A stretch of DNA of 64,000 nucleotides from Eledone cirrhosa (Eukaryota): the NCBI GenBank assembly GCA_964016885.1, contig OZ024745.1, forward strand, positions 99,820,001-99,884,000. The letters are read 5' to 3'. The translations under genes were made by a program, and so were the position numbers. This document shows positions 11,553 through 64,000 of the stretch, piece after piece; position 1 is the first letter of the stretch, and the number at the start of each line of letters is the position of its first letter. The notes beneath the pieces are model-generated. The model was not told the origin of the DNA and searched no databases. It saw only the letters and a program-made list of their open reading frames with translations.

Positions 11553-11887
11553 TCCCTTTATGTTCTGAATACCAATTTAAAAAGTTATTTTTACTTAATC
11601 ACATTGAATTGATTATTTTCAAAAATGATTAGTTAACTAATGCTTTGTGAGTGAAATTTGGTAAACAGAAACAGCATTGAAGCCTGAATAATCCATCCAC
11701 ACACACACACTATATATATATATATAGTGTGTGTGGTGTGTGGTGTGTGGTGTGTGTGTGTGTGGAATATTCCAATGATTTGATCAGAGACACACTGCAT
11801 TTAAGGTCGAGTGATGCAATTTCAAGTGATCAGCGGCCATTAGACTCACCTGATCAATGAAACAATTAATACTGTAAATAAAACCCT

Positions 11888-11922
<35 letters not shown>

Positions 11923-11927
<5 letters not shown>

Positions 11928-12264
11928 GAAAACAAGGACGATTGGTTACTCCTTCATTACATTTATTGGTAGGTGACGCGCGTTTCGCCACTGATCAGCT
12001 CAAGGTTCGATCTGTATTGAAAGGGTCTGTCGAGCTGCCGATCATTGAGTCAGGTAGGATCGATACAGATCGAACCTTGAGCTCATCAGTGGCGAAGCGC
12101 GCGTCGCCTACCTATAAATGTAATGAAGGAGTAACCAATCGTCCTTGTTTTCCTTTCAATATATTACACTCTGTATAGCTCTACAGCTCATCACAGAAGT
12201 GAACCTAAACATTAAGTGCTCTCCCAGGTGAACCTACATTAACTCCAAGTTACACCCCCTGGAT
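11923..12264 (+). mobile_element. Fold-back element (~93 bp inverted arms plus unique tail) with hammerhead 3' half, Penelope-like
   Basis: Arms at about 11924-12016 and 12063-12156; GAAACGCGCGTC-ACCTACC-AATAAA motif; flanked by (TA)n; deleted relative at 50673-50855. Confidence 0.7.
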
Positions 12265-13756
12265 ATATATATATATATATTGTTATTATAAAGATTCTCT
12301 GCCCTACAGTTAAGCTTTTACCATTTTTATAGCACGTTTCTTTACTTGTTTTTCTGTTATATTTTGTCTGTTAAAAAATACATACTTTATGATATAAACA
12401 TCTTTACTGTTATGTTTTATGTGTGCTTACATTTACTGTTTGTTTATGACCTGTAACTTAGTAGTTCCCAAAAATGGTTTAGAAAAAAAATACTGGGATC
12501 AATATAATTGGCCAAATCCCTTTGAAATAGTGCCTCAGCATGGCCATAGTCTAATGGCTGAAACCAATAATAAAGAAAAAAAAAAAGAGAAGAATAGTGA
12601 ATTTCTTTAGAAATATGACCACAGAGTTGAGAATAGACTCAGGGAGAAGCTTCATTTACAGATCAAGTAAATCACATATTTGCCTTGAAATTTTTGAAAG
12701 GATAATTGACTTTGTAAAATCTGATGCTGTGGAGAAACAAAAGTACCTGTTTCAAACAAAGATCAGTTCTACCATAAATATATTTTATTCTGTCCGACAT
12801 AAGATTGTGCTCAAAGCATCAGTACATCACAAAGCTTACCAACATTTTTTTACTTTATCCAACACATTTTGGCAATATAGATCATGAGTTGCAATGAGTG
12901 GTGGTTTTTATTTGAAACCTTTGTGAAGCAGTAGAAATGTGAAGCTTGATGCAGCTAATATTAAATTTACCAGTCAAAATAGATTAAATGACCTTTCTTT
13001 TCTTTATTTGATTCTGTTTTGAAGCAATCTAGAAAAACTGTTGCAGATTAAAATCAAATATTTAACGCTCATCATCAGCAGTTAACTATTGAAAGATAAT
13101 CTGTTTCTGACAAATGAAAAAAGACACTCTTGAAAAACAAGCCACTAATGTAAATAACAGCAGTGACAACATGCATGTTTACATATGCACTTATTGCATT
13201 CACATAATATGCTCTTTGGGGTTATTCAGCTGTCAGAAAATATTTTCTTTGATAAAATGTGCAAGACATAAGACAATGCTCCCAAGTTAAACCGATTCCC
13301 ATTGCTCTTAAAAAGGTTAGACCCTGTTGGATACTAATATGTGTAGCCTGTTATGCTATATTATGAAATACTAGACAAACATTCAACAATACAAGCAAAT
13401 TTACATATGGATTGTTTGTAGCAATATATTCCAGACTGACAATCTGGAAGATGAAATAAAGAATAAAAATAAAGTTCCAGCTGAGTAATACATGTATTTT
13501 AGCTGTAAAATTAATCACTCCGCCTACCCATTATTTTTGTTACTTAGCTCATTTGTAGTTTGCCATTGTGTTGGTGGTCCCGCCTACTGAAATAGGGTTG
13601 AGGTGGTGGGAAAGTGTGAAGCAAATGAAAATAAGAAATAATAAATTTAAAATTTACTACAAAAAAATAAGTTAGCAATAATGTCATTTACTTGCAGACT
13701 GATGAAACATTCCATATTGAAACCATACAATTTTCTATACAGTTTCATATATATAT

Positions 13757-14284
13757 ATGGTAGGGGGGTGTTCCAAGGCCATAGTATCTAGAATAAGGAT
13801 GAAGGGTTTCTCCCTGCATACGAAAGGCCGGTTATATGATTCTTGTGTGAGGTGCGCAATGCTACATGGTAGTGAGACATGGGCAGCAACTACAGAGGAT
13901 ATGCGATGGCTGGAGCGAAATGAAGCAAGCATGCTCCGTTGGATGTTCAATGTCAATGTACATGAACGACCGAGCATGAATGTGTTGAGAAACTGTGTTT
14001 AAGAGGGATAAGTTGTAGTGTGTGGGAGAGAAGACTGCAATGGTATGGACATGTGATGCGCATGGAGGATGACCGCTGGGTAAAGAAGTTCCAAGAACTG
14101 CGAGTAGAAGGAAGACGCAGTAGAGGAAAACCACGAAAAACATGGGCAGCAGTGGTGAGAGCGGACCTCAGATCGCTGAAACTCACGGAGATGACGAAGG
14201 ACTGTGACAAGTGGAGAGATGCTGTGTTGAATAGGACCCGTCCCACCCTTGCAAGCAGGGAAAAGCAGATGTAAAATGATGATA
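13757..14284 (+). mobile_element. RTE LINE 3' fragment with (GAT)n tail
   Basis: [20 protein letters not shown]...RLQWYGHV...GKPRKTW...[10 protein letters not shown]. Confidence 0.93.
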
Positions 14285-14329
14285 TATATATATATATATA
14301 TATATATAATTCGTTTTTTAATTTGTTTT

Positions 14330-15014
14330 ATGAGATTTCTTATCTGAAAACGTGTGTTGAAACATTGCTATGCTGCCAATAAAAACTCATGCACCTGTTG
14401 GTTTTCACTTCAATTTATTATGTTTCCAGTTGGTTGGTTCCATAACCGGAAGGTTGTTTATATATTGACAAAGCTCTTTCGTCACACATTCTGTGACCTC
14501 CTCAGTGACTAGGACACATTAGAGAACATAGAGATAAAAATTATATCTACACACAGAAAAGATGCAATGCTCAGACAACAAATATTTGTAACAGGCAACA
14601 AATATAAACAAACTCCAACCAAAATTAAACAGAAAACATGAATGGAATAGCAACATCACAACTAGTAATTAAGGACAAAATGAAGACATACAGACACACA
14701 AAAAAAAAACCCAACAAAACAAATCAGACACAGAAATAGAACAAACACCCAACTAGTGACAAGTAAATAAACACATAAATAAATAAAAATACACACCTGG
14801 ATGTAAAGCATATGCAAACTAAGCACACAACACACAAAAACAAGATGCTGTAGGACAGAACAAAGGAGAGACACAAAAAATAAAAACCTAGTCACTGAAT
14901 GTGTGATGAAAGCTTTGACAATATATAAATAACCTTCTGGTTATCAAACAAACCAACCAGAAACATAATTGAAGTGAAATCCAACAGGTGCATGTGTTTT
15001 ATTGGCAGCATGGC
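14330..15014 (-). mobile_element. Penelope-like 3' remnant with inverted partial pLTR
   Basis: 14367-14513 is an inverted copy of 14888-15014, separated by ~375 nt that is T/G-rich on the minus strand; hammerhead core in the arms; TA repeats on both sides. Confidence 0.7.
14464..14512 (-). ncRNA. Minimal type I hammerhead ribozyme motif
   Basis: Minus strand: GTCA-CTGAGGA-G-GTCACA-gaatg-TGTGAC-GAAA-GAGCTT-TG(T/A)C, i.e. CUGANGA, a 6-bp stem II, GAAA and a short AGCT-type stem III. Confidence 0.6.
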
Positions 15015-15026
15015 TCTCTCAAAGTA

Positions 15027-15069
<43 letters not shown>

Positions 15070-19885: not shown

Positions 19886-20124
19886 TATATATATACACAC
19901 ACATGTATATATATATGTGTGTGTGTATGTGATTCCAGGGTTCATTTAGGGGTAACCACAGTTAGTAAGGTTGTCATCATTTTTCACACAAGTGTCAGAC
20001 AGCCAACATTTTGTCCACAGGAAGAAACATTTTGTTGTTAGCAGAAGTAGCAATTCCCTAAACTTTTTTTGAATGAAACAGTTCTAGTCCTGTATAAACC
20101 ATTTGTGTATATATATATATATAT

Positions 20125-21089
20125 AGAAATAGTGGACAGCTTCCATTACCTGGGTGACAAAATCAGCAGTGGGGGAGGGTGCTCTGAAAGTACAGTAGCT
20201 AGAGTCAGAACTGGATGGAAAAAGTTCAGAGAGCTTATACCACTATTAGCCACTAAAGGGTTCTCCCTAAAAATGAAAGGCAGGTTGTATGATGCCTGCA
20301 TACGAACAGCAATGTTGCATGGCAGTGAGACCTGGGCATTGTGTGCAGAGGATATACGCAGACTAAAGAGGAACGAAGCCTGCATGCTCCGCTGGATGTA
20401 TAATAGTAATATACGTGAACGGCAAAGCATAAACGAACTAAGGGAGAAATTAGAAATAAGAGGGATCAGATGTTGTTTACTCGAGAGAAGGCTACGTTGG
20501 TATGGTTACGTGATGCGCATGAAAGACGACAGCTGTATAAAAAAGTGCAGGGCAATAAAGATAGACGGTAGCCACGGAGTAGGCAGACCCAGAAAAACCT
20601 GGGACGACTTGATAAATTACGACCTCACACACTTACACCTCTCCAAGACAATGTCACTGGACCGAGATCTTTGGCAGTACTCAGTAATAGAGAAGACCCG
20701 CCTTACCTAAATACAAAGTAAAACCTACTACAGTCAGTCGGCACCTTTAACAAAATACACCCCCGTCCCACTACCCCCACCCCAACCACACCGCCCCTTT
20801 CAATGTAAAGTTATGTTGGTGCCACAACATCCAGGCCGAAACAAATGAGGTCGTGTAGGTGTCACGACAAAAAAGCACACAGTCCACGCTGTAATGTGGC
20901 CGTGTAGGTAACATGGTAAAAACCTCCCAGTTCCACACTAAATGTGGTTGGTGTTAGGAAGGGCATCCAACTGTAGAAAACCCGCCAGACAGTCCTATGC
21001 GAGCAAGACAACCACTCTTGCCTCAAGTGGGAAAACTCCCGTCCAAACCCATGCAAGCGTGGAATATGGACGTTAAACGATGATGATGA
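20125..21089 (+). mobile_element. RTE LINE 3' fragment (different subfamily) with apparent long 3' UTR and (GAT)n tail
   Basis: EIVDSFHYLG...KGRLYDAC...RLRWYGYV...GRPRKTWDD with stop at 20710; downstream sequence ends GGACGTTAAACGATGATGATG. Confidence 0.85.
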
Positions 21090-22009: not shown

Positions 22010-22203
22010 AACTAAGGAAATGTGGTAAGGAACCAGGTGGACCATAACGCACCAAAGTACTCAATACTTAGGGTAGTAGAGTGGGTAATAGGAACGAGTA
22101 GGACCCCGACGGCTGAGCTCAAGCCGTTTCGATGGCTAATTCAGTCCAGAATTAGCCGTCGAAACGGCTTGAGCTCAGCCATTGGGGTCCTACTCGTTCC
22201 TAT
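22010..22203 (-). mobile_element. Palindromic fold-back element with hammerhead 3' half (copy 1 of 3)
   Basis: ~58-bp arms spanning 22088-22203 plus ~78 bp tail, inside (TA)n; near-identical to 52930-53098 and 54004-54203. Confidence 0.85.
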
Positions 22204-23365: not shown

Positions 23366-25341
23366 CACCGAGTAACAAAATAATTTTTTTTTTCTGTTCC
23401 TGGCTTGTAATCACTTTTTTGTGTTGCTTAGGTCCCAAATAAAAAAAAAAAAGTGCTATTAAACAGTTAAAAGTATGGGTTTGTAAAAATTCTAAGCTAT
23501 TCACTAGAATTATTTGTATGCTGGATTTTACATTGTAAGTTTAATTTGCTTATGTTAAATGATTTTTTTAATATATGTTTCAGGTTAAATTAAAATTATA
23601 AAATAAAGAGTAATACCTAAAGAAAATTATAAAAGTGCAATAAAGTATAAAATTGTTAAAAAGTGGATTAAAGAGATTTATTGATACTGGATTTTCGCAC
23701 CCTGAATAAAGGGTAAGTTGTGTTTTAAGCACAAATTTTCATTAGTATTATTAGTGTTCTTTTATATTATTTAAATATGTATTTCCCTTTCCAATATTTA
23801 TTTTGTATTACATATCAAATTTATTTTCCAAGGCAAGTATTCTGATGAAGAGGAGGAGATGGATGCTGAGGACTTGGATTACCTGCCTGAGGTACCAGAA
23901 AAAGTTCCTCACTTCCCAAACCAAAAAGAAGTCAATGACTTGGTCAGGGATATGGGTCTGACCAAGTCCAATGCAGAGCTATTCGTCTCCAGGATGAAGC
24001 AGTGGAACTTCGTCAAGGAGGAAGTGCAGGTGACAAGTCAGAGAAGTCGACACAAACCTTTCTCAGGCTTTTACACTCTTAGGCATGGCCTCTGCTTCTA
24101 CCATGACGTGCCTGGACTGTTTGACGTTATTGGGGTGCCGTTTGTGCCCAAGGAGTGGCGGCTATTTATAGACAGCTCCACCACAAGTTTGAAGGCTGTC
24201 CTCCTCCACAATGGAAACAAGTTCCCGACACTGCCCCTAGCTCATTCAGTCTGCCTGAAGGAAGATTACTACAGTGTGAAAGTCCTCTTGGAAGCTCTGC
24301 AATACAACCAGCACAATTGGGAAATCATTGGAGACTTCAAGATGGTGGCTTTCCTGCTTGGACTCAAAGGAGGCTTTATCAAATTCCAATGCTTCCTCTG
24401 CCTTTGGGACAGCAGAGCCACCTCTGACCACTACAAAAGAAACAACTGGGAGCAGTGAACAGAATTTGTAGTTGGGACCCGGAACGTCATGTGGGAGCCA
24501 CTGGTTGATCCCAGGATTGTGCTCATGCCACCACTACACATTAAGTTGGGGTTGATGAAGCAGTTTGTGAAGGCTCTCAACCAAGAATCAGCCGCTTTTA
24601 AGTACCTTCTTGAGTCCTTCCCCAAGTTATCCGAGGCCCAAATCAAAGGTGGAATTTTTGTTGGACCTCAGATAAAGAAGGTGTTTAAGTCTACCGAGTT
24701 CTCCAATAAGCTCAATAGGATTGAGAGAACAGCATGGAACTGTTTCAAGGCAGTTGTTAAGGGCTTCCTGGGCAACTATAGAGCTGAAAACAACCAGCAA
24801 CTGGTGCAGGATTTGATAAAGGCTTTTGGCACCATGGGATGCAGGATGTCGTTTAAACTCCATATGCTGGATGCTCACCTGGAAAAATTCAAGGACAATA
24901 TGGGCGCCTACTCAGAAGAACAAGGTGAACGATTCCACCAAGATGTGAAAGAGATAGAGCGGAGGTACCAGGGCCACTACAATGAAAAAATGATGGTGGG
25001 ACTATATCTGGGGGCTAGTGCGGGAATGCGACCTGGACTACAACCGCAAATCCAGGAAATACAGTCATTTCTGACGTGTATAAGTTGCTTTATAAGTGTT
25101 ATTTGTTTTTACTTGTTTGCTTTTGATAAGCTTGTGTAATAAAATAAATATATACTCTATTGATTTAATTATACGAACTGATAAATTTTTTTTAAATGCG
25201 TTTTATCTTGAAAAATATGAAATTTTCGAAATATCAAACTCCTGACCAGAAACCCAAACTTCTGATTAAATAATAGTGTTTTTTTATAATAATGGGATAT
25301 AACTAACCATGAAATGACACTTAGAACCGGGGAACAAAAAA
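23366..25341 (+). mobile_element. DNA transposon, Chapaev (CMC)-like, decayed
   Basis: Left end TTA|CACCGAGTAACAAAA...TGTTCCTGG; inverted partner CCGGGGAACAAAAAA at about 25327-25341 (outermost right TIR missing); contains a transposase pseudogene. Confidence 0.7.
23859..25075 (+). pseudogene. Transposase catalytic region (Chapaev3-like), with one premature stop and a late frameshift
   Basis: WRLFIDSS..SLKAVLLHNG, GDFKMV, CFLCLWDSR, PPLHIKLGLMKQFVKAL, SEEQGERFHQD, RYQG; in-frame TGA at 24456-24458; DYIWGL continues in another frame near 25000. Confidence 0.85.
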
Positions 25342-43733: not shown

Positions 43734-46704
43734 ATCATCATCATCATCATCATCATTTTACGTCCGCTTTTCCCTGCTTGCAAGGGTGGGACGGGTCTTA
43801 TTCAGCACAGCATCTCTCCACTCGTCACGGTCCCTCGTCATCTCCACCGTGAGCTTCAATGATCTGAGGTCTGTTCTCACCACCTCCGCCCATGTTTTTC
43901 GTGGTCTACCTCTACCACGTCTTCCTTCAACTGGCATTTCCTGGCACTTCTTCACCCATCGGTCATCCTCCATGCGCATCACATGTCCATACCACCTCAG
44001 TCTCCTCTCCCGTACACTACATTCTATCCCTCTCAGACACAGTTTCTCTCTCAACACATTTATGCTGGGTCGTTCACGCACATTTACACTGCACATCCAA
44101 CGGAGCATGCTTGCCTCATTTCTCTCCAGCCGTCGCATATCTTCTGCGGTAGCTGCCCATGTCTCACTACCATGCAGCATCGCGCTCCTCACACAGGCAT
44201 CATACAACCGGCCTTTCGTACGCAGGGAGAAACCCTTCTTCGTCAACAGAGGAAGCAGCTCCCTAAACTTCTTCCAACCCGTCCTTATTCTAGATACTAT
44301 GGCCTCGGAACACCCTCCTCCCATGCTAATCTGATCTCCTAGGTACCGGAAGCTATCCACCACTTCTATAGCGCCCTCTCGCATTTGAAAAATGTGTCTA
44401 TCAGTGCGACTTCTACTGTCTAATTTCCCTGTACATCTACTGCATACATATTTCTCCCTACCTGTTAGTTTGCCTGCTATCCCGCTACATCTCTTGTGTA
44501 CCCAGGACCTACATTGTGTGCATTTTATAGAATTTATGCCAGTTCCTTTTCTGCATATCGAACATGGCCATTTCCCTGATGGAATCAGGGTTTTGTCCTC
44601 TTTTCTACTCATCAACACTTTTGTCTTAGCTAGATTTACTCTCAGTCCTCTTGCTTCCAACTGCTGTTTCCATAGCCGGAATTTATTCTCTAGCTCCTCT
44701 ACTGATTCTGCCATAAGAGCCAGATCGTCAGCATAGAGAAGTTCCCATGGACAGCCAGTCTTAAACTCCTCTGTTATGGCTTGGAGGACTATAATGAACA
44801 AGAGCGGGCTGAGGACCGAACCCTGATGTACTCCTACTTGTATCTGGAATTCCTCACTAAACTCCATTCCTACCCTGACTTTACTGAGAGTACCTCTGTA
44901 CAAAGTTTGCACTGTCCTTACAAGCCATTCCTCAACACCCAGCTTCCTTAGGGACCACCAGATGACAGATCGGGGTACCCTATCAAAGGCCTTCTCTAGG
45001 TCAACAAAGGCTAAGTATAGTGGCTTATTCTTCTCTAAGAACCTCTCTTGCATTTGTCTCACCAAGAAGAGGGCATCTGTTGTACTCTTCCCAGGCACAA
45101 AACCAAACTGCATCTCATCTAGTTTGACCCTTTCTCTAATTAGTTGTGCTAGAATCCTTTCTGCCACTTTCATAACCTGATCTATCAGTTTTATACCCCT
45201 ATAATTGCTCCTCTCCAAAGCATCCCCTTTACCTTTGTAGCAATTTATGAGAATACTGCTGCACCAGTCTTTGGGTATGACACCACCATATATAGCCTGA
45301 TTGATTATGCGTGCAACCAGTTTAGTGCCTACGTCCCCTGATGCCTTCAGCATCTCAGCAACTATTCCCGATGGTCCGGCCGCCTTACCATTTTTCATTT
45401 CCCTAATCGCCTCTTGGACCCTATATTCGTCAATCTCAATAGCTGGTCCCTCTGTCGGATCTACCAAGGGTAATTTCTCTCTCTCCCATTCGTTCTCCAC
45501 ATTCATCAGTCTCTCATAATGACATTTCCAGGCCTCCTTTTTCTGGTCATTCGTGACACTAAGTACACCGGCATCATCCCGGACACATTTATCACCAACA
45601 ACATCCTGATTTGCATTGACACACTGCCTTGCAATGTGGAACACCGCACGCCTCTGATCTTCCCGTCGCAGAACATTGGCAAACCTCCTACTCTCTGCCT
45701 CCCTGCGTGCTAAGTACACCTGACGTCTAGCTTCTCTCTTAGTGGCTGTATATTCTTCCCTACTCCCACCCTTATTCCAAGCCTTCCATGCTAGTCTTTT
45801 GTCTCTAATAGCCTTATCTACACTGCTGTTCCACCACCAGGTCACTCTCTGTCTGGTTGGAGCTCTGCTCCAGCCACAGGTTTCATCAGTAGCCTTCAGC
45901 AAGTTGTCACGTAAGAACTTCCAGTTATTATCTATGTCATACGTCTCTAAATCGTCTTCTTTTTCGTCATATACATCTTGAAGGGCTTTCCTAAATTTGA
46001 ATTTTAGTGAAAGGTCTTTTAGCTTCCAGACCTTTCTTCTCCACACCTTCCTATATGTCTCATTCCATCTCTTGCTTACTGAGATATCACTAACAACTAA
46101 CCTATGCTGTGGGGTACATTCTTCCCCAGGGTATGCCTTGGTATTAGACACTATCTGCCTGTCCCGCTGCCTAACTAGCAGGAAGTCAATCTGGCTTATG
46201 TGCTCACCAGATTTGTAGGTTATTAGGTGATTGGCAGGTTTCTGGAAGTTTGTGTTGCAAATAGTCAATGTACTTGCATCACAAAATTCAAGAAGTCTCA
46301 CTCCTTCTTCATTTCTTGAACCGTAACCGTGCCCACCATGTACCCCAGTGTAACCATCCTGGAGCTGTCCAACATGACCATTGAAGTCTCCTGCTAGCAT
46401 AACGATGTCTCCGTCCTCTGTCATTGTGGTTGTTTGCAAAAGTTGCTCATAAAAGCAGTCTTTCTCATCTTTGCCTAGGCCTGCTTGGGGAGCATAGACC
46501 GAGATGATTGTCAGTAGTCTCCTACCTACAACTAATCTAAGCTTAATTATTCGATTACTAACTCGAACTACCTCTATTGTCTTATTGATCCATTTCTCAG
46601 CCAGGAAAATGCCTACTCCCCCTAACCCATCATCCTTACCTACCCAGAATAGCTTATAGCTAAGACGCTTGCCTACGACTAGTCTCGCAGAGGCACCCCT
46701 CCAT
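43733..46704 (-). mobile_element. Young RTE-clade LINE with intact 3' end and (GAT)n tail; 5' end lost in the assembly gap
   Basis: Single open frame from the gap to the stop at 43758; (CAT)n at 43734-43756 on the plus strand. Confidence 0.97.
43758..46704 (-). CDS. LINE ORF: APE endonuclease plus reverse transcriptase with inserted PHD-like finger (5' incomplete)
   Basis: About 980 codons without a stop: [29 protein letters not shown] (APE); [39 protein letters not shown] (RT); [15 protein letters not shown]. Confidence 0.96.
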
Positions 46705-51545: not shown

Positions 51546-52929
51546 TTCAAGGTTTTTAAAAAATATTTTGTTACATAAATTACACTAAAAGAATGTTTAA
51601 AATGTTTATGATGAAATAACTATTACGACCCAAACAGATTTAAGCTAATTTACATTGGTTGTATATTAGCCCTTCAGTTTAAATTAGGAAACAAGTTAAA
51701 TAAGAGCAACTGAATTGAATATGAATGGACTGTAAGCAACAGGATTCAGTTTTTAAACACAATACAAGACGAGCTTTCCAAGGTCCCTTGGAAAGCGTAC
51801 ATCAATATTGCATTAAATACAATTTATTAAGACCTTAAACTTACAAAAATGGTGAAGATAGGAATACTGTACTCTACTATAATCTTCACTTTCGTTATGT
51901 CAAATTGCGCCCATTGTTCAAGTTTCAAAGTATAATAATTGCTTCTACCTTTGGCACAAGGCCAGCAATTATCCCAGTGCATTATTGCATCGAAATCCCG
52001 CAAGGATGAAAAGAACTATTGTAACCGTAACGACACAAAAAGCAATATCCAAGACCCTATTTATCGAACCTTGTTGAGAAGTGTGAAATTGGCAAAACTT
52101 ATCTATCAAATTATATTTATCATGAAGAGCTAATTTTATCACACTAAACATTATTTAATCTTTTAAAAAACCTTATGGAATTGTTAAAAACTAATTACTA
52201 AAATACCCTTTAATAAATTGAGAATCAATATCAATTTCATTAAATTGGATTTACATTACAATAATTATATTTTTTCTCCCCAAACTACCAAAAAACACAT
52301 CTATTTGTATATACGCTACAATTTATGCACATGTTATGTTTATCGCATATCGAAACTGTTTTTATATGTTGGTTTTATAATTGATAACAGCTAAATTAAT
52401 CGCTACAATTGAACTGACCCCGCCCCCGCCGAATTCAGAAATGCTTTCACCGCGCCTGCATTAGGATTTTCACTATTCACACATTTTGTAATGCACCGCT
52501 CCTTGCACTTGAATTCATTCTCATTCGAATATTTTCAAATGTTATAAGGCGAACATCTAGTGTTCTTTCTGTGTCTATACATAAACAGACTCATTAACTG
52601 CTTAATGAACACAACCACAAGGATATGGTCCGAACACGGAAGAACCGAACTCCCACTGTCATCACCTCCATCCCTATCTCTCTGTAGAGTGATGCAAATG
52701 GGGTCCTACGTGCTGGCCTCCCCACAATCCTGGCGGACAGAATGCAGAAGCCGTTTCCCCGGAGGATGGATGGTAACGGAGATGCGCTATTCAAGACGTA
52801 GAGTTAGTTTCAATGGCTACTGGCCTGAGAACAGTATAAAACTCAAATTATAGAATTTACATTTCATTCTTTAATCTCTACGCCCTTTTTTCTGTGCGTA
52901 TATATATTATATACTATATATTATAATAT

Positions 52930-53098
52930 AGGGAACCGAGTAGGACCCCGACGGCTGAGCTCATAATTAGCCGTCGAAACGGCTTGAGCTCAGCCGTTGG
53001 GGTCCTACTCGTTCCTATTACCCACTCTACTACCCTAAGTATTGAGTACTTTGGTACGTTATGGTCCACCTGGTTCCTTACCACATTTCCTTCGTTAT
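52930..53098 (+). mobile_element. Palindromic fold-back element (copy 2, apex deleted)
   Basis: Same ends as 54004-54203, with ~25 nt near the hairpin apex missing. Confidence 0.85.
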
Positions 53099-53335: not shown

Positions 53336-53610
53336 ATTATATATTTTTCGCTGTTTTCTCTTTTCTTCCCTTTTGCTTTCCTTCCCTACCTCCTCAGTTT
53401 TCCCAATAACTTATCCAGTTATTGACGCCCTAGGGCGAGATATATTGTCTTTAAAGCGTAAAAATATCCGATACCCCAGTAGACAACTACTTGCTACTGG
53501 GGGGGGGGGGTCTTGCTTTCTTCGTATTCCCACTGCATTTTAAGTTACCTTAAATAGCAACTACACAGCCATTTCTATTCTCCATATATTTCGTTATATA
53601 TATATATACA

Positions 53611-53821
53611 AGGGCGGTGGATTGGCAGCATCCGTAGGGAGTCGGACACCATGCTTTGCAACAGAGTTACAGTCCGAGTTCAAATCCTGCCGAGGTTAAC
53701 TTTGCCTTGCATCCTTACGGGGTCGATAAAATAAAGCACCGGTAACGCGCTGGGGTCGATTTAATCGACTTTCCCCTCCTCCTAAATTGCTGGCCTTGTG
53801 CCTATACTAGAAATCATTATA
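53611..53821 (+). mobile_element. SINE family B, full length
   Basis: GGCGGTGGATTGGCAGCATC...GAGTTCAAATCC...CTAGAAATCATTAT. Confidence 0.88.
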
Positions 53822-53965: not shown

Positions 53966-54003
<38 letters not shown>

Positions 54004-54009
<6 letters not shown>

Positions 54010-54200
54010 AACGAGTAGGACCCCGACGGCTGAGCTCAAGCCGTTTCGACGGCTAATTCTGGACTCCAGAATTAGCCGTCGAAACGGCTTGAGCTCAGCC
54101 GTCGGGGTCCTACTCGTTCCTATAACCCACTCTACTACCCTAAGTATTGAGTACTTTGGTGCGTTATGGTCCACCTGGTTCCTTACAACATTTCCTTCGT

Positions 54201-54203
<3 letters not shown>
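54004..54203 (+). mobile_element. Palindromic fold-back element (copy 3, perfect 60-bp arms)
   Basis: 54004-54063 is the exact reverse complement of 54065-54124; tail to 54203; (TA)n on both sides. Confidence 0.9.
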
Positions 54204-54240
<37 letters not shown>

Positions 54241-54360
54241 TACACATACACATATGTGTGTATTTCTTTTGAATCCAATTGAAAATAGCCATATAAATAT
54301 GAGTGTTTTGTCCACGTTCAAATGCTGACAACTTTTCCCTCTCATTAATTGGGGCTGGGA

Positions 54361-54817
54361 AGGCGGTGAATTGGCAGTATCGGTAGAGGGTCGGACGCCA
54401 TGCTTTGCAACATCGAGTTACGGTTCTTTACAATCCGAGTTCAAATCCCGTCGAGGTTAACTTTGCCTTTCATCCTTACGGGGGTCGATAAAATGAAGTA
54501 CCAGTCACGCACTGGAGTCGATTTAATCGACTCCCCCACCCCACCCCAAATTACTGGCCTTGTGCCTATACTAGAAATCATTATGATAGTTATTTTTAGG
54601 GCGGTGGATTGGTAGCATCAGTAGAGGGTCGGACGCCTTGCTTTATAGCATAGAGTTACGGCCCCTTATGATCAGAGTTCAAATCCCGCCGAGGTGAACT
54701 GTCTTTCATCCTTACGGGGTGGACAAAATAAAGTACTAGTCACGCACTGGGGTCGATTTAATCGACTGTCCCTTCCCCCAAAATTGCTGGCCTTGTGCCC
54801 ATATAAGAAACCATTAT
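54361..54817 (+). mobile_element. Two head-to-tail SINE family B copies
   Basis: 54361-54585 and 54598-54817 are diverged full-length copies. Confidence 0.88.
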
Positions 54818-56772: not shown

Positions 56773-57149
<377 letters not shown>

Positions 57150-58522: not shown

Positions 58523-58731
58523 CTGCGTGCGTGAATGTGTGTGTGTAATTCCAAACGTTTGAGATGATAAATTATAAATATTACAGAAAAACATGATAGA
58601 ATAATTTTAAGTCTCACACGCACTTTTAAGAAACAAAATATCTTGAAAGTTACTGAAATAAAAATAGAAAAACTCATAAAATGCATGCACAATGAAAGAA
58701 TGTAAATAAAACGCAGGTTTGAAATATTCAC

Positions 58732-59562
58732 CTCAAAAGCCCAAGTGCAGGAAATCCCAGCATATCTCTGGACACACCTTCCAATTTCTACATCTTCATG
58801 TGTAGTGAGCGGACTCTGCATACAATGGTCGACATGGCTGGCCACTAATTTTAAAGTAGCTCGACTAAATACTATCCCAGGTCCCCCCATACAAAAGTTT
58901 TCATTTTCTTTAAGTTTTAACAGACCAGATTCTTCTTTGGTCCCAAGCCCAGCTTGGCCTATAAACTGCGGTTTCGAACTATTAATCGATCTTAAAAAAC
59001 TTTGGAGGCGTGATCCTTTGATGTATACATCATCATCTGCCCTCATAAACCATTCAAATTCATCGATATAATGATCATGCATGTACTTTAACATACTGAA
59101 TGATTTTTTCTGAGGTGGGTAAGTATCATCAACACCTCGCAGACCGACTACCGGGAGATCACCAATTCCTTGAGAAGTTTCACTAGAAAAGAAAATCACT
59201 TCTCCATTTATCGAACGGGCCCAAGTTTTGTACGCAGCAATGGCTCGCGTATTCAGGTACTTTTTCGCAGTCATGACACCAATAAGTATGAAGTTCTTCG
59301 TAGATTTTAGAACATTTTGTGGATCCTGAGTCTGCTGACATGAAGTTGAAGCAAAAGACTGTGTTGTCTCAGTTAATTTTAAGGGATCGTTGGAAAGTTG
59401 ACCTAAGATGCAGCATGTTCCATGGGATAATCCACATGTAATAAATCGATAACCACTCCAACTGACCAGTAACATGCCACTGATGATACCGAAAAGTATC
59501 CCAATTAAAGATTTTGTTCGAATTCCGTACCTCCGTTTGGCCATGCTTTCTTCTCCATGCAT
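58732..59562 (-). CDS. CHSY1: Chondroitin sulfate synthase 1-like, first coding exon (TM anchor plus GT31/fringe-like glycosyltransferase domain)
   Basis: TM segment SLIGILFGIISGMLLVSW; IGVMTAKKYL, DDTYPPQKKSF, WFMRADDDVY, FCMGGPG, TTHEDVEIGRC, CTWAFE, then donor GAG|GTGAAT at 58731. Start at ATG 59562 or 59544. Confidence 0.93.
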
Positions 59563-63082: not shown

Positions 63083-64000
63083 GATGCCCCCTTCTTGGTG
63101 AGACAATTACAAGAGAGGTTCTTAGAGAAAAATAAGCCACTATACTTAGCCTTTGTTGACCTAGAGAAGGCCTTTGATAGGGTACCCCGATCTGTCATCT
63201 GGTGGTCCCTAAGGAAACTATAGGTGTTGAGGAATGGCTTGTGAAGACAGTACAAACTTTGTACAGAGGTACTGTCAGTAGAGTCAGGGTAGGAATGGAG
63301 TTTAGTGAGGAATTCCAGATACAAGTAGGAGTACATCAAGGTTCAGTCCTCAGCTCGCTCTTGTTCATTATAGTCCTCCAAGCCATAATAGAGGAGTTTA
63401 AGACTGGCTGTCCATGGGAACTTCTCTATGCTGACGATCTGGTTCTCATAGCAGAATCAGTAGAGGAGCTAGAGAAGAAATTCTGGCTATGGAAACAGCA
63501 GTTGGAAGCAAGAGGACTGAGAGTGAACCTAGCTAAGACAAAAGTGTTGATAAGTAGAAAAGAGGACAAAACTTTGATTCCATCAGGGAAATGGCCATGT
63601 TCGATATGCACTGATATAAATTCTATAAAATGCACACAATGCAGATCCTGGGTACACAAGAGATGTAGCGGGATAGCAGGCAAACTAACAGGTAGGGAGA
63701 AATACGTATGCAGTAGATGTACAGGGAAATTAGACAGTAGAAGTTGCATTGATAGACACATTTTTCAAATGCAGGCGGGTGCTATAGAAGTGGTGGATAG
63801 CTTCCGGTACCTAGGAGATCAGATTAGCATGGGATGGGGTGTTCCGAGGCCATAGTATCTAGAATAAGGACGGGTTGGAAGAAGTTTAGGGAGCTGCTTC
63901 CTCTGCTGATGAAGAAGGGTTTCTCCCTGCGTACGAAAGGCCGGTTATATGATACCTGTGTGAGGAGCGTGATGCTGCTTGGTAGTGAGACATGGGCAGC
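63083..64000 (+). mobile_element. RTE LINE internal/3' fragment within the RPRD intron
   Basis: [28 protein letters not shown]-like finger, FRYLG; frameshifts near 63220 and 63835; runs off the window. Confidence 0.95.

Follow-up and report, generated by a model that had tools for sequence, protein, structure and literature searches.

A perfect palindrome with half a hammerhead motif in the Eledone cirrhosa genome, probably the stub of a Penelope-like insertion

What kind of unit places a long perfect palindrome, containing half of a hammerhead motif, between two TA repeats? The question is raised by a locus of Eledone cirrhosa in a stretch of 64,000 nucleotides (GCA_964016885.1, contig OZ024745.1, positions 99,820,001 to 99,884,000), here called the window. 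An original prediction had read the locus as a mobile fold-back element that arose at stem II of a ribozyme.

The palindrome and its copies in the window

A palindrome scan of the window confirmed the predicted perfect palindrome of 121 bp at 54004-54124, with arms of 60 bp each (54004-54063 and 54065-54124) around the centre base C54064 as 1-nt spacer. Arms of at least 14 bp together with a GC content above 0.3 are found in no other perfect palindrome of the window except a CA/TA microsatellite at 11702-11735. Folding of 54004-54204 as RNA gave -134.6 kcal/mol (z -18.75), and none of 200 shuffled sequences was equally stable. The parts of the element and its further copies are:

53968-54007, no strand: (TA)n target microsatellite, left flank, seen in the sequence; its last 4 nt belong to the perfect palindrome
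54004-54063, minus strand: inverted tail-less copy of the element end; on the minus strand it begins right after the AG seen upstream in other copies (upstream TTTAG from reads)
54064, no strand: 1-nt spacer; on the minus strand the G of the upstream AG, likely the parental 3' splice acceptor (putative splice site)
54065-54124, plus strand: direct copy, arm part
54065-54080, plus strand: putative decayed 5' half of a Penelope-type hammerhead, with the register taken from PMC4209133 and from the unit at 14509
54081-54110, plus strand: hammerhead 3' half with GAAA, helix III with palindromic GAGCTC loop, GUC (cut position after 54103) and GGGGTCC
54125-54201, plus strand: one-sided tail of ~76 nt, on the direct copy only; 54124 is the second fixed end in the family
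54201-54241, no strand: (TA)n right flank, seen in the sequence
22010-22203, minus strand: copy 2, with a 6-nt apex loop and 3 arm mismatches
~52927-53098, plus strand: copy 3, with an inverted arm of only ~35 nt that is joined to the direct copy just inside the start of the latter

BLAST of the element against the window returned these three copies and one chance-level match of 27 nt at 28817. Copy 2 matches the focal element at 95% over 204 columns. In all three copies the outer left end is identical and lies in TA-rich sequence, and the tail of ~76 nt, which differs at 2-3 of 76 positions between the copies and contains a small hairpin according to RNA folding, is followed by (TA)n or TA/GA repeats. 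The original prediction of three copies with the same ends therefore holds for the outer ends and the tail, but only the focal palindrome is perfect and the centres differ: the apex of copy 2 is 3 nt shorter, copy 3 lacks 30 nt spanning left arm and apex, and no two of the three apexes are alike. At the end of its right arm, the focal copy has a nearly private A (A54124), as T is found in 99.5% of the depth of public run X1 at this position. The focal copy carries two nearly private substitutions (54124 and 54187) and no arm mismatch. A54124 matches the left TA flank and thereby lengthens the palindrome, which could be explained by templated repair from arm to arm. A search of the element against Rfam gave 26 rows, 24 of which are sub-threshold matches to miRNAs or 3'UTR hairpins.

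Several copies of a SINE-like repeat of ~210 nt surround the focal element (53610-53820, 54360-54585 and 54598-54700). An exon of a chondroitin sulfate synthase gene is located at 58729-59562 on the minus strand, with no later exon found in the window; copies 1 (the focal one) and 3 may lie in an intron of this gene and be transcribed with it. Matches to this gene mark the window as animal DNA, whose repeats are reminiscent of octopus genomes. A near-full LINE ORF with RT and PHD-finger domains (43758-46600, minus strand) is bounded by an N gap, and fragments of the same LINE family occur at 337-1573, 13721-14274, 20051-20710 and 63181-63855. The region from 29340 to 43760 is a TA/CA microsatellite of ~14 kb with periods of 8 and 12 nt and a GC skew near -1, which starts inside a LINE fragment and ends at a LINE 3' end. 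At 23775-25139 on the plus strand, two adjacent frames of ~226 aa are split by one stop and have no Pfam match; they resemble a decayed transposase-like gene.

The hammerhead half and other fold-back units

In the right arm, the box GAAA (54081-84) is followed by a 5-bp stem CGGCT/AGCCG around TGAGCTC and by GGGGTCC (54104-10); helix III comprises 6 bp if the A15.1-U16.1 pair is counted. The letters are those that had been described as GAAA core, stem III with GAGCTC loop and GUC triplet, and the motif exceeds what shuffled sequences yield. With a half-motif defined after the sequence was seen, 32 of 20,000 dinucleotide shuffles contained it with a stem of at least 5 bp, 132 of 20,000 with a stem of at least 4 bp, and 2 of 20,000 together with a 6-nt palindromic loop. 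A hammerhead 3' half is truly present and not a product of chance. Co-folding of helix III as a dimer gave -27.3 kcal/mol, compared to -5.4 kcal/mol for the monomer; a dimer-type design has been described for Penelope hammerheads (PMC4209133).

The GAAA box, helix III and the NUH triplet are present; a CUGANGA box followed by helix II is absent from the element and from the upstream rows listed for the reads described below. On both strands of the element CTGANGA is missing, the best match having 2 mismatches, and of the 14 matches to CTGANGA...GAAA that the window contains, none adjoins a copy of the focal element. Rfam returned no hammerhead among the 150 of 367 window rows listed or in the 26 rows of the element. 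This result is uninformative because a complete minimal hammerhead near 14505 was likewise missed.

In the Penelope of Drosophila virilis, the 5' end of a 2-bp helix I marks where the intron stops, and helix III carries a palindromic insert (Cervera and de la Pena, 2014, PMC4209133). In metazoan Penelope-like elements (PLEs), the hammerhead has one extra base before the conserved G10.1-C11.1 pair (PMC4209133). Read in this register, the right arm becomes AG / TC, CAGAATT, A, G-CCGT-C, GAAA, i.e. a 2-nt helix I strand, a core slot at 54067-73 with 3 of the 6 fixed letters, one extra base, and G10.1 (54075) and C11.1 (54080) around a 4-nt loop. The slot CGGATCT in the loose-end consensus of a second subfamily found in the reads has the same three fixed letters. 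The D. virilis register was chosen after the fact, and the match of the core slot is weak by itself. With the D. virilis hammerhead the element shares the acceptor-like AG before the 2-bp helix I, the extra base before G10.1-C11.1 and the palindromic helix III loop; it differs in having CAGAATT in place of CUGANGA and a helix II of one pair, and it is predicted to be inactive.

In a self-comparison of the masked window, seven inverted pairs or groups at short range were found, of which three are the focal copies, three are unrelated units and one is an AT-rich 33-mer. Two of the unrelated units have the same layout as the focal element:

11925-12263, plus strand: (TA)n, inverted arm, spacer of ~54 nt, direct copy with a near-canonical minimal hammerhead, tail of ~105 nt, (TA)n
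14307-15030, minus strand: complete minimal hammerhead, tail of ~60 nt, (TA)n on both sides

Helix III is palindromic in the unit at 11925-12263, the core reads CTGATCA in one arm and CTCATCA in the other, and an acceptor-like AG lies ~6 nt after the start of the direct copy. In the unit at 14307-15030, the acceptor-like CCTAG is followed by three bases, CTGAGGA (near 14505/14509), one base, a 6-bp helix II and GAAA; its partner arm starts ~5 nt before the AG and lacks the core, which was deleted between two repeats of GTCAC. The third unit (56879-57115) is embedded in (GT)n/(CA)n; its arms contain poly(T)/poly(A), and no tail is seen. GAAAC forms the end of one arm and is preceded by a CAGA-type slot in the other, and a tandem duplication of ~25 nt is found near the junction. 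In a small sample of three unrelated families, one member of each inverted pair begins within ~7 nt of the putative acceptor AG (54064, 12012/12068 and 14509/14891).

Because the intact core at 14509 shows the same order of parts, the apex of the palindrome is likely the boundary between intron and helix I, next to a core that would have decayed in place. The 16-bp 'stem II' is likely a product of the inversion, and the hammerhead-like motif is likely dead. The original prediction is not followed at this point: a hammerhead stem II at the apex is not visible in the sequence, where the long stem is better explained as a by-product of inversion, and the CUGANGA half was probably not replaced by its mirror image, as a decayed core slot seems to persist at 54067-73. 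The parent that had been predicted, GGACCCC-CTGANGA-GACGGC, was absent from the window and from the 21 of 420 loose-end rows listed.

The family in public reads

For a view beyond the window, records of four out of 17 public runs were mapped onto 54040-54212. Matches comprised 17,260 of 16,285,364 contigs in X1, 472 of 762,587 records in X4, 24,567 of 12,467,656 raw reads in X15 and 8 of 6,943,267 contigs in X5, which stems from a second organism. The family is very large, where X1 is possibly related to the window's own sample and summed contig depth is not a copy number. Amplification into TA repeats, as originally proposed, is borne out by the highly amplified family in the reads and the TA-rich flanks in the window. 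A word search of public runs found element words in 14 runs from 9 studies, most with fewer than 5 words, and no RNA run was among the 14 matches listed.

The depth at 54064 and 54069 was 151,784 and 804,771 in X1 (~19%), 84 and 3,464 in X4 (2.4%), 0 and 34 in X5 (8 contigs), and 138 and 2,364 in X15, where depth is biased by 7,274 molecules ending at an AATT site at 54070, apparently a restriction cut. The focal apex is thus crossed by at most about one fifth of the depth found immediately inside the right arm. Records crossing it were found in three of the four runs (X1, X4 and X15). A near-identical apex is common to many copies (~19% of X1 depth), the listed apex variants are small indels at 54061-54068, and the 3-nt-shorter apex of copy 2 occurs in 23 contigs. 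At 54055-54073, 63 of 80 molecules of X15 end at the AATT of the left arm and yet pass that of the right arm uncut, either by partial digestion or because the arms come from two different alleles.

Many records leave the element just before 54065 (94 in X1, 9 in X4, 1,088 in X15 and 1 in X5). Their upstream consensus, which covers 30 letters per row and is among the 21 of 420 rows listed, is AT-rich and ends in TTTAG in all four runs, with an agreement of ~0.5 in the three rows built from several records. In a second subfamily, of which 1,592 reads become loose before 54073 (agreement 0.76), TTAG occupies this place and is preceded by CTAAT at a distance of ~18 nt. These ends resemble a 3' splice site; the acceptor-like sequence is present in 4 of 4 runs, and no donor is seen in the 30-letter rows. 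In copies 1 and 2, the left arm carries the upstream AG as a mirror image at its end.

At the other side, (TA)n follows loosely behind 54124 in 101 contigs of X1, 9 of X4, 3,767 reads of X15 and 1 record of X5; in X15 ~11,200 reads continue across 54124-54125. Since (TA)n follows 54124 in all four runs, the family has a second fixed terminus at this arm end, located 76 nt before the end of the tail. The rows listed (15 of 33 for joints, 12 of 23 for spacers) contain nine points at which the inverted arm is joined to the direct copy again (54100, 54101, 54120, 54125, 54127, 54132, 54156, 54157 and 54164), each seen in 1-2 contigs of X1 only. Four of the nine spacer rows of this kind contain extra letters (A, AA, AAA, AAATT) that continue the mirror of upstream TTTAG or AATTTAG. 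As no deletion from the focal palindrome gives such letters, these four arms were copied from a longer parent. In addition, a subfamily allele is present on both arms (T54072A in 40% and its mirror A54056T in 25% of X1 depth), so that fold-backs exist on at least two backgrounds. The fold-back form itself originally appeared to be the mobile unit, a view that is not supported in view of the differing apexes, the depth that mostly bypasses the focal apex and the inverted arms that in some cases extend upstream; a sub-lineage of amplifying fold-backs is an unlikely alternative.

A coding role of the element was considered and rejected. An open frame of 46 codons starts at 54065, and a word search gave no relatives. 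phmmer with this frame returned one match (E 3.7e-4), a 24-fold repeated hypothetical protein of one contig, which was judged as chance. Third-position sites account for 13 of 34 listed frequent variants, without clear bias, and the second subfamily is shifted by +2 relative to the focal frame.

Origin of the unit and rival explanations

The unit is probably a stub PLE insertion, in which the 5'-truncated 3' end of an element with a likely dead hammerhead-like motif stands head to head with an inverted tail-less copy in (TA)n. Most likely, it represents a further instance of an already described Penelope-type insertion structure. PLE insertions have been described with an inverted 5'-truncated copy beside the 5' end, a tail of 30-40 bp on one end and a preference for (TA)n by which TSDs are concealed (Craig et al., 2021, PMC8557442). 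Palindromes in head-to-head arrangement at the inverted junction, for which self-priming was proposed (Arkhipova et al., 2013, PMC3846280), and inverted terminal repeats of varying size with a retained 5' intron (Schostak et al., PMC2377424) have also been reported.

We favour the PLE reading because the layout of the focal unit matches this published signature of inverted 5'-truncated copy, one-end tail and (TA)n bias (PMC8557442), because its two fixed ends (54124 and ~54200) recall the two RT starts of the anole PLE, because the centre varies among the three window copies and the nine rejoin points, because the D. virilis register fits both the focal arm and the intact core at 14509, and because two sequence-unrelated units of the window show the whole layout. 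The inverted 5'-truncated copy head to head with the direct copy is found in window copies and reads, together with variable 5' truncation, a (TA)n or AT-rich target and two 3' ends. EN+ PLE insertions share with the focal unit the inverted tail-less copy abutting a direct copy, the tail on one end, (TA)n without visible TSD, the palindromic junction and the hammerhead-like motif near the 3' end. In contrast, the focal unit has only ~200 bp without ORF, its tail measures ~76 nt in 3 of 3 copies compared to 30-40 nt, and its junction is often at one spot.

Some points speak against this assignment. The CUGANGA core is missing, so the hammerhead link depends on the 3' half and a register chosen afterwards; the tail is longer than usually cited; and a near-identical apex in many copies would equally be expected from a fold-back master lineage. 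Pattern scans of viral, metagenome and prokaryote sequences as well as protein searches found no RT or GIY-YIG gene linked to the element end. The element patterns gave 0 viral and 0 metagenome contigs, and protein searches with the sole open plus-strand frame returned no PLE protein. Two single 20-mer matches in bacterial MAGs from the prokaryote genome scan were taken as chance.

A mechanistic model is offered by Poseidon PAc of Anolis, for which both strands are cut and extended and two internal RT starts define the tail (Frangieh et al., 2024, PMC11167929). The focal unit and PAc share an AT-rich target, two defined 3' ends and a 3' end ~90-100 nt behind the cut position: by subtraction, the anole RT start lies 85-92 nt behind the ribozyme cut, and the focal end 97 nt behind. 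PAc differs in being autonomous and in its hammerhead, which cuts with protein help, whereas the focal ends are 76 nt apart and no conserved frame is seen. Ribozyme cleavage was dispensable for insertion of PAc in vitro (PMC11167929), so a dead core need not block the spread of the family. By analogy, the element's RT-endonuclease would nick both strands of (TA)n, and each nick would prime cDNA at one of two internal start sites, giving a tailed and a tail-less copy. Both cDNAs would tend to stop at or near the boundary between intron acceptor and helix I and would be joined head to head by end-joining or by fold-back self-priming, as Arkhipova et al. proposed. The palindrome would be rebuilt at each insertion with a favoured junction and not be inherited from a ribozyme stem II. 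Of the originally proposed template switch or self-priming at stem II, the process is the one hypothesised for head-to-head Penelope palindromes (PMC3846280), but the origin at stem II is not retained.

Other short or related elements were compared as well. Animal non-LTR retrozymes (bioRxiv 10.64898/2026.07.22.740005) are likewise short, non-coding, PLE-associated and related to type I hammerheads; they form head-to-tail tandem arrays with complete cores, whereas 3 of 3 window copies of the focal family are single head-to-head units without a full core. The octopus Naiads Naiad_Obim and Naiad_Ovul (PMC8557442 supplement) share the (TA)n preference, and one is listed with half a hammerhead core. 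As a source of the focal family the published octopus Naiads were rejected for want of an exact-word match: six of seven exact element words had no match in that supplement, where FASTA line breaks can hide words, and the seventh matched two other records. Cephalopod Naiads have been called old remnants (PMC8557442). In O. vulgaris, 31 recently active PLE families were reported, and palindromes or hammerheads are unmentioned in the main text (PMC13282606). No paper on the focal family was found in the open literature; the family may already be part of a repeat library.

An unlikely competitor is a fold-back stub that was made once or a few times and then served as master, transcribed as a whole and re-inserted by PLE machinery as a non-autonomous hairpin of ~200 bp. 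Apex variants would then be later nicks and deletions at the hairpin tip, again without an origin at stem II. The identical outer ends of the fold-backs in 3 of 3 window copies would fit, as would the ~19% of X1 depth at the arm start that runs through a near-identical apex with only small indels listed at 54061-54068, and non-autonomous PLE derivatives are known (PMC8557442; 10.64898/2026.07.22.740005). On the other hand, most depth avoids the focal apex (2.4% in X4, none in the 8 contigs of X5), some inverted arms pass the apex into upstream sequence, both alleles of the subfamily site occur in fold-backs and the same inversion is found in unrelated families of the window. A perfect hairpin of 60 bp is also expected to be a poor RT template, which counts against a master copy. 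With a slim chance, the parent hammerhead was complete, with its 5' half in an upstream exon and the intron in loop II; splicing would assemble or tune the ribozyme, and the stubs would be truncated at the acceptor. The intron-like upstream end (TTTAG in 4 of 4 rows before 54065, TTAG and CTAAT in the second subfamily) points in this direction. So does the conservation of GAAA, CGGC/GCCG, GAGCTC and GGGGTCC in the listed consensus of both subfamilies while the next bases diverge, since a conserved half with diverging neighbours asks for a pairing partner. D. virilis hammerheads differ between spliced and unspliced forms (PMC4209133). However, no upstream exon is present in the 30-letter loose-end rows listed, and the 16 nt between AG and GAAA already fit a core that decayed in place, as a comparison with the intact core at 14509 indicates. 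In its boldest form, to which we give a small chance, the hammerhead would be gated by splicing: a retained intron would split the parent ribozyme, only spliced RNA would join CUGANGA and helix II to the GAAA-helix III-GUC half, and the RT would halt at the acceptor, writing thousands of 60-bp dsRNA hairpins into TA repeats, some of them self-amplifying.

It is very improbable that the unit derives from a DNA transposon, either as a Tc1/mariner-type MITE with a 121-bp hairpin and TA target duplication or as a Helentron/HINE. The palindrome is bounded by TA, the tail contains a small hairpin and palindromic MITE-like repeats are common in animals, for instance frog Harbinger (PMC5625713), but the repeats of the focal unit are not terminal, as each of the three copies continues beyond the right arm with the 76-nt tail, and this arm is usually followed by T instead of a TA duplication. 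The arms diverge from the centre, where their break points vary, and a non-random hammerhead half would be left unexplained. HINEs are characterised by ~13-bp subTIRs close to the two ends, by a 3' stem-loop and by TT targets (PMC4067079), compared to a 60-bp 5' fold-back in (TA)n. The unit, for which the original prediction had named TIRs of a DNA transposon or Helitron as the alternative, fits neither the MITE definition nor, in a comparison by eye, that of HINEs (PMC4067079). An assembly or library fold-back artefact would account for perfect focal arms while other copies show CpG-type decay, and short-read assembly is error-prone near microsatellites. Its probability is close to nil, given apex-crossing records in X1, X4 and X15 and a copy 2 with three arm mismatches and an apex of its own.

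Stubs such as the one assigned here to a PLE insertion are easily mislabelled as MITEs or microRNA hairpins. The size of the family offers many junctions at which the formation of inverted PLE arms can be tested, i.e. priming on two strands versus self-priming. The dsRNA of palindromic repeats has been tied to heavy A-to-I editing in animals (PMC5625713). If transcribed, each copy of the focal family would be a self-contained perfect dsRNA stem and a candidate substrate for such editing.
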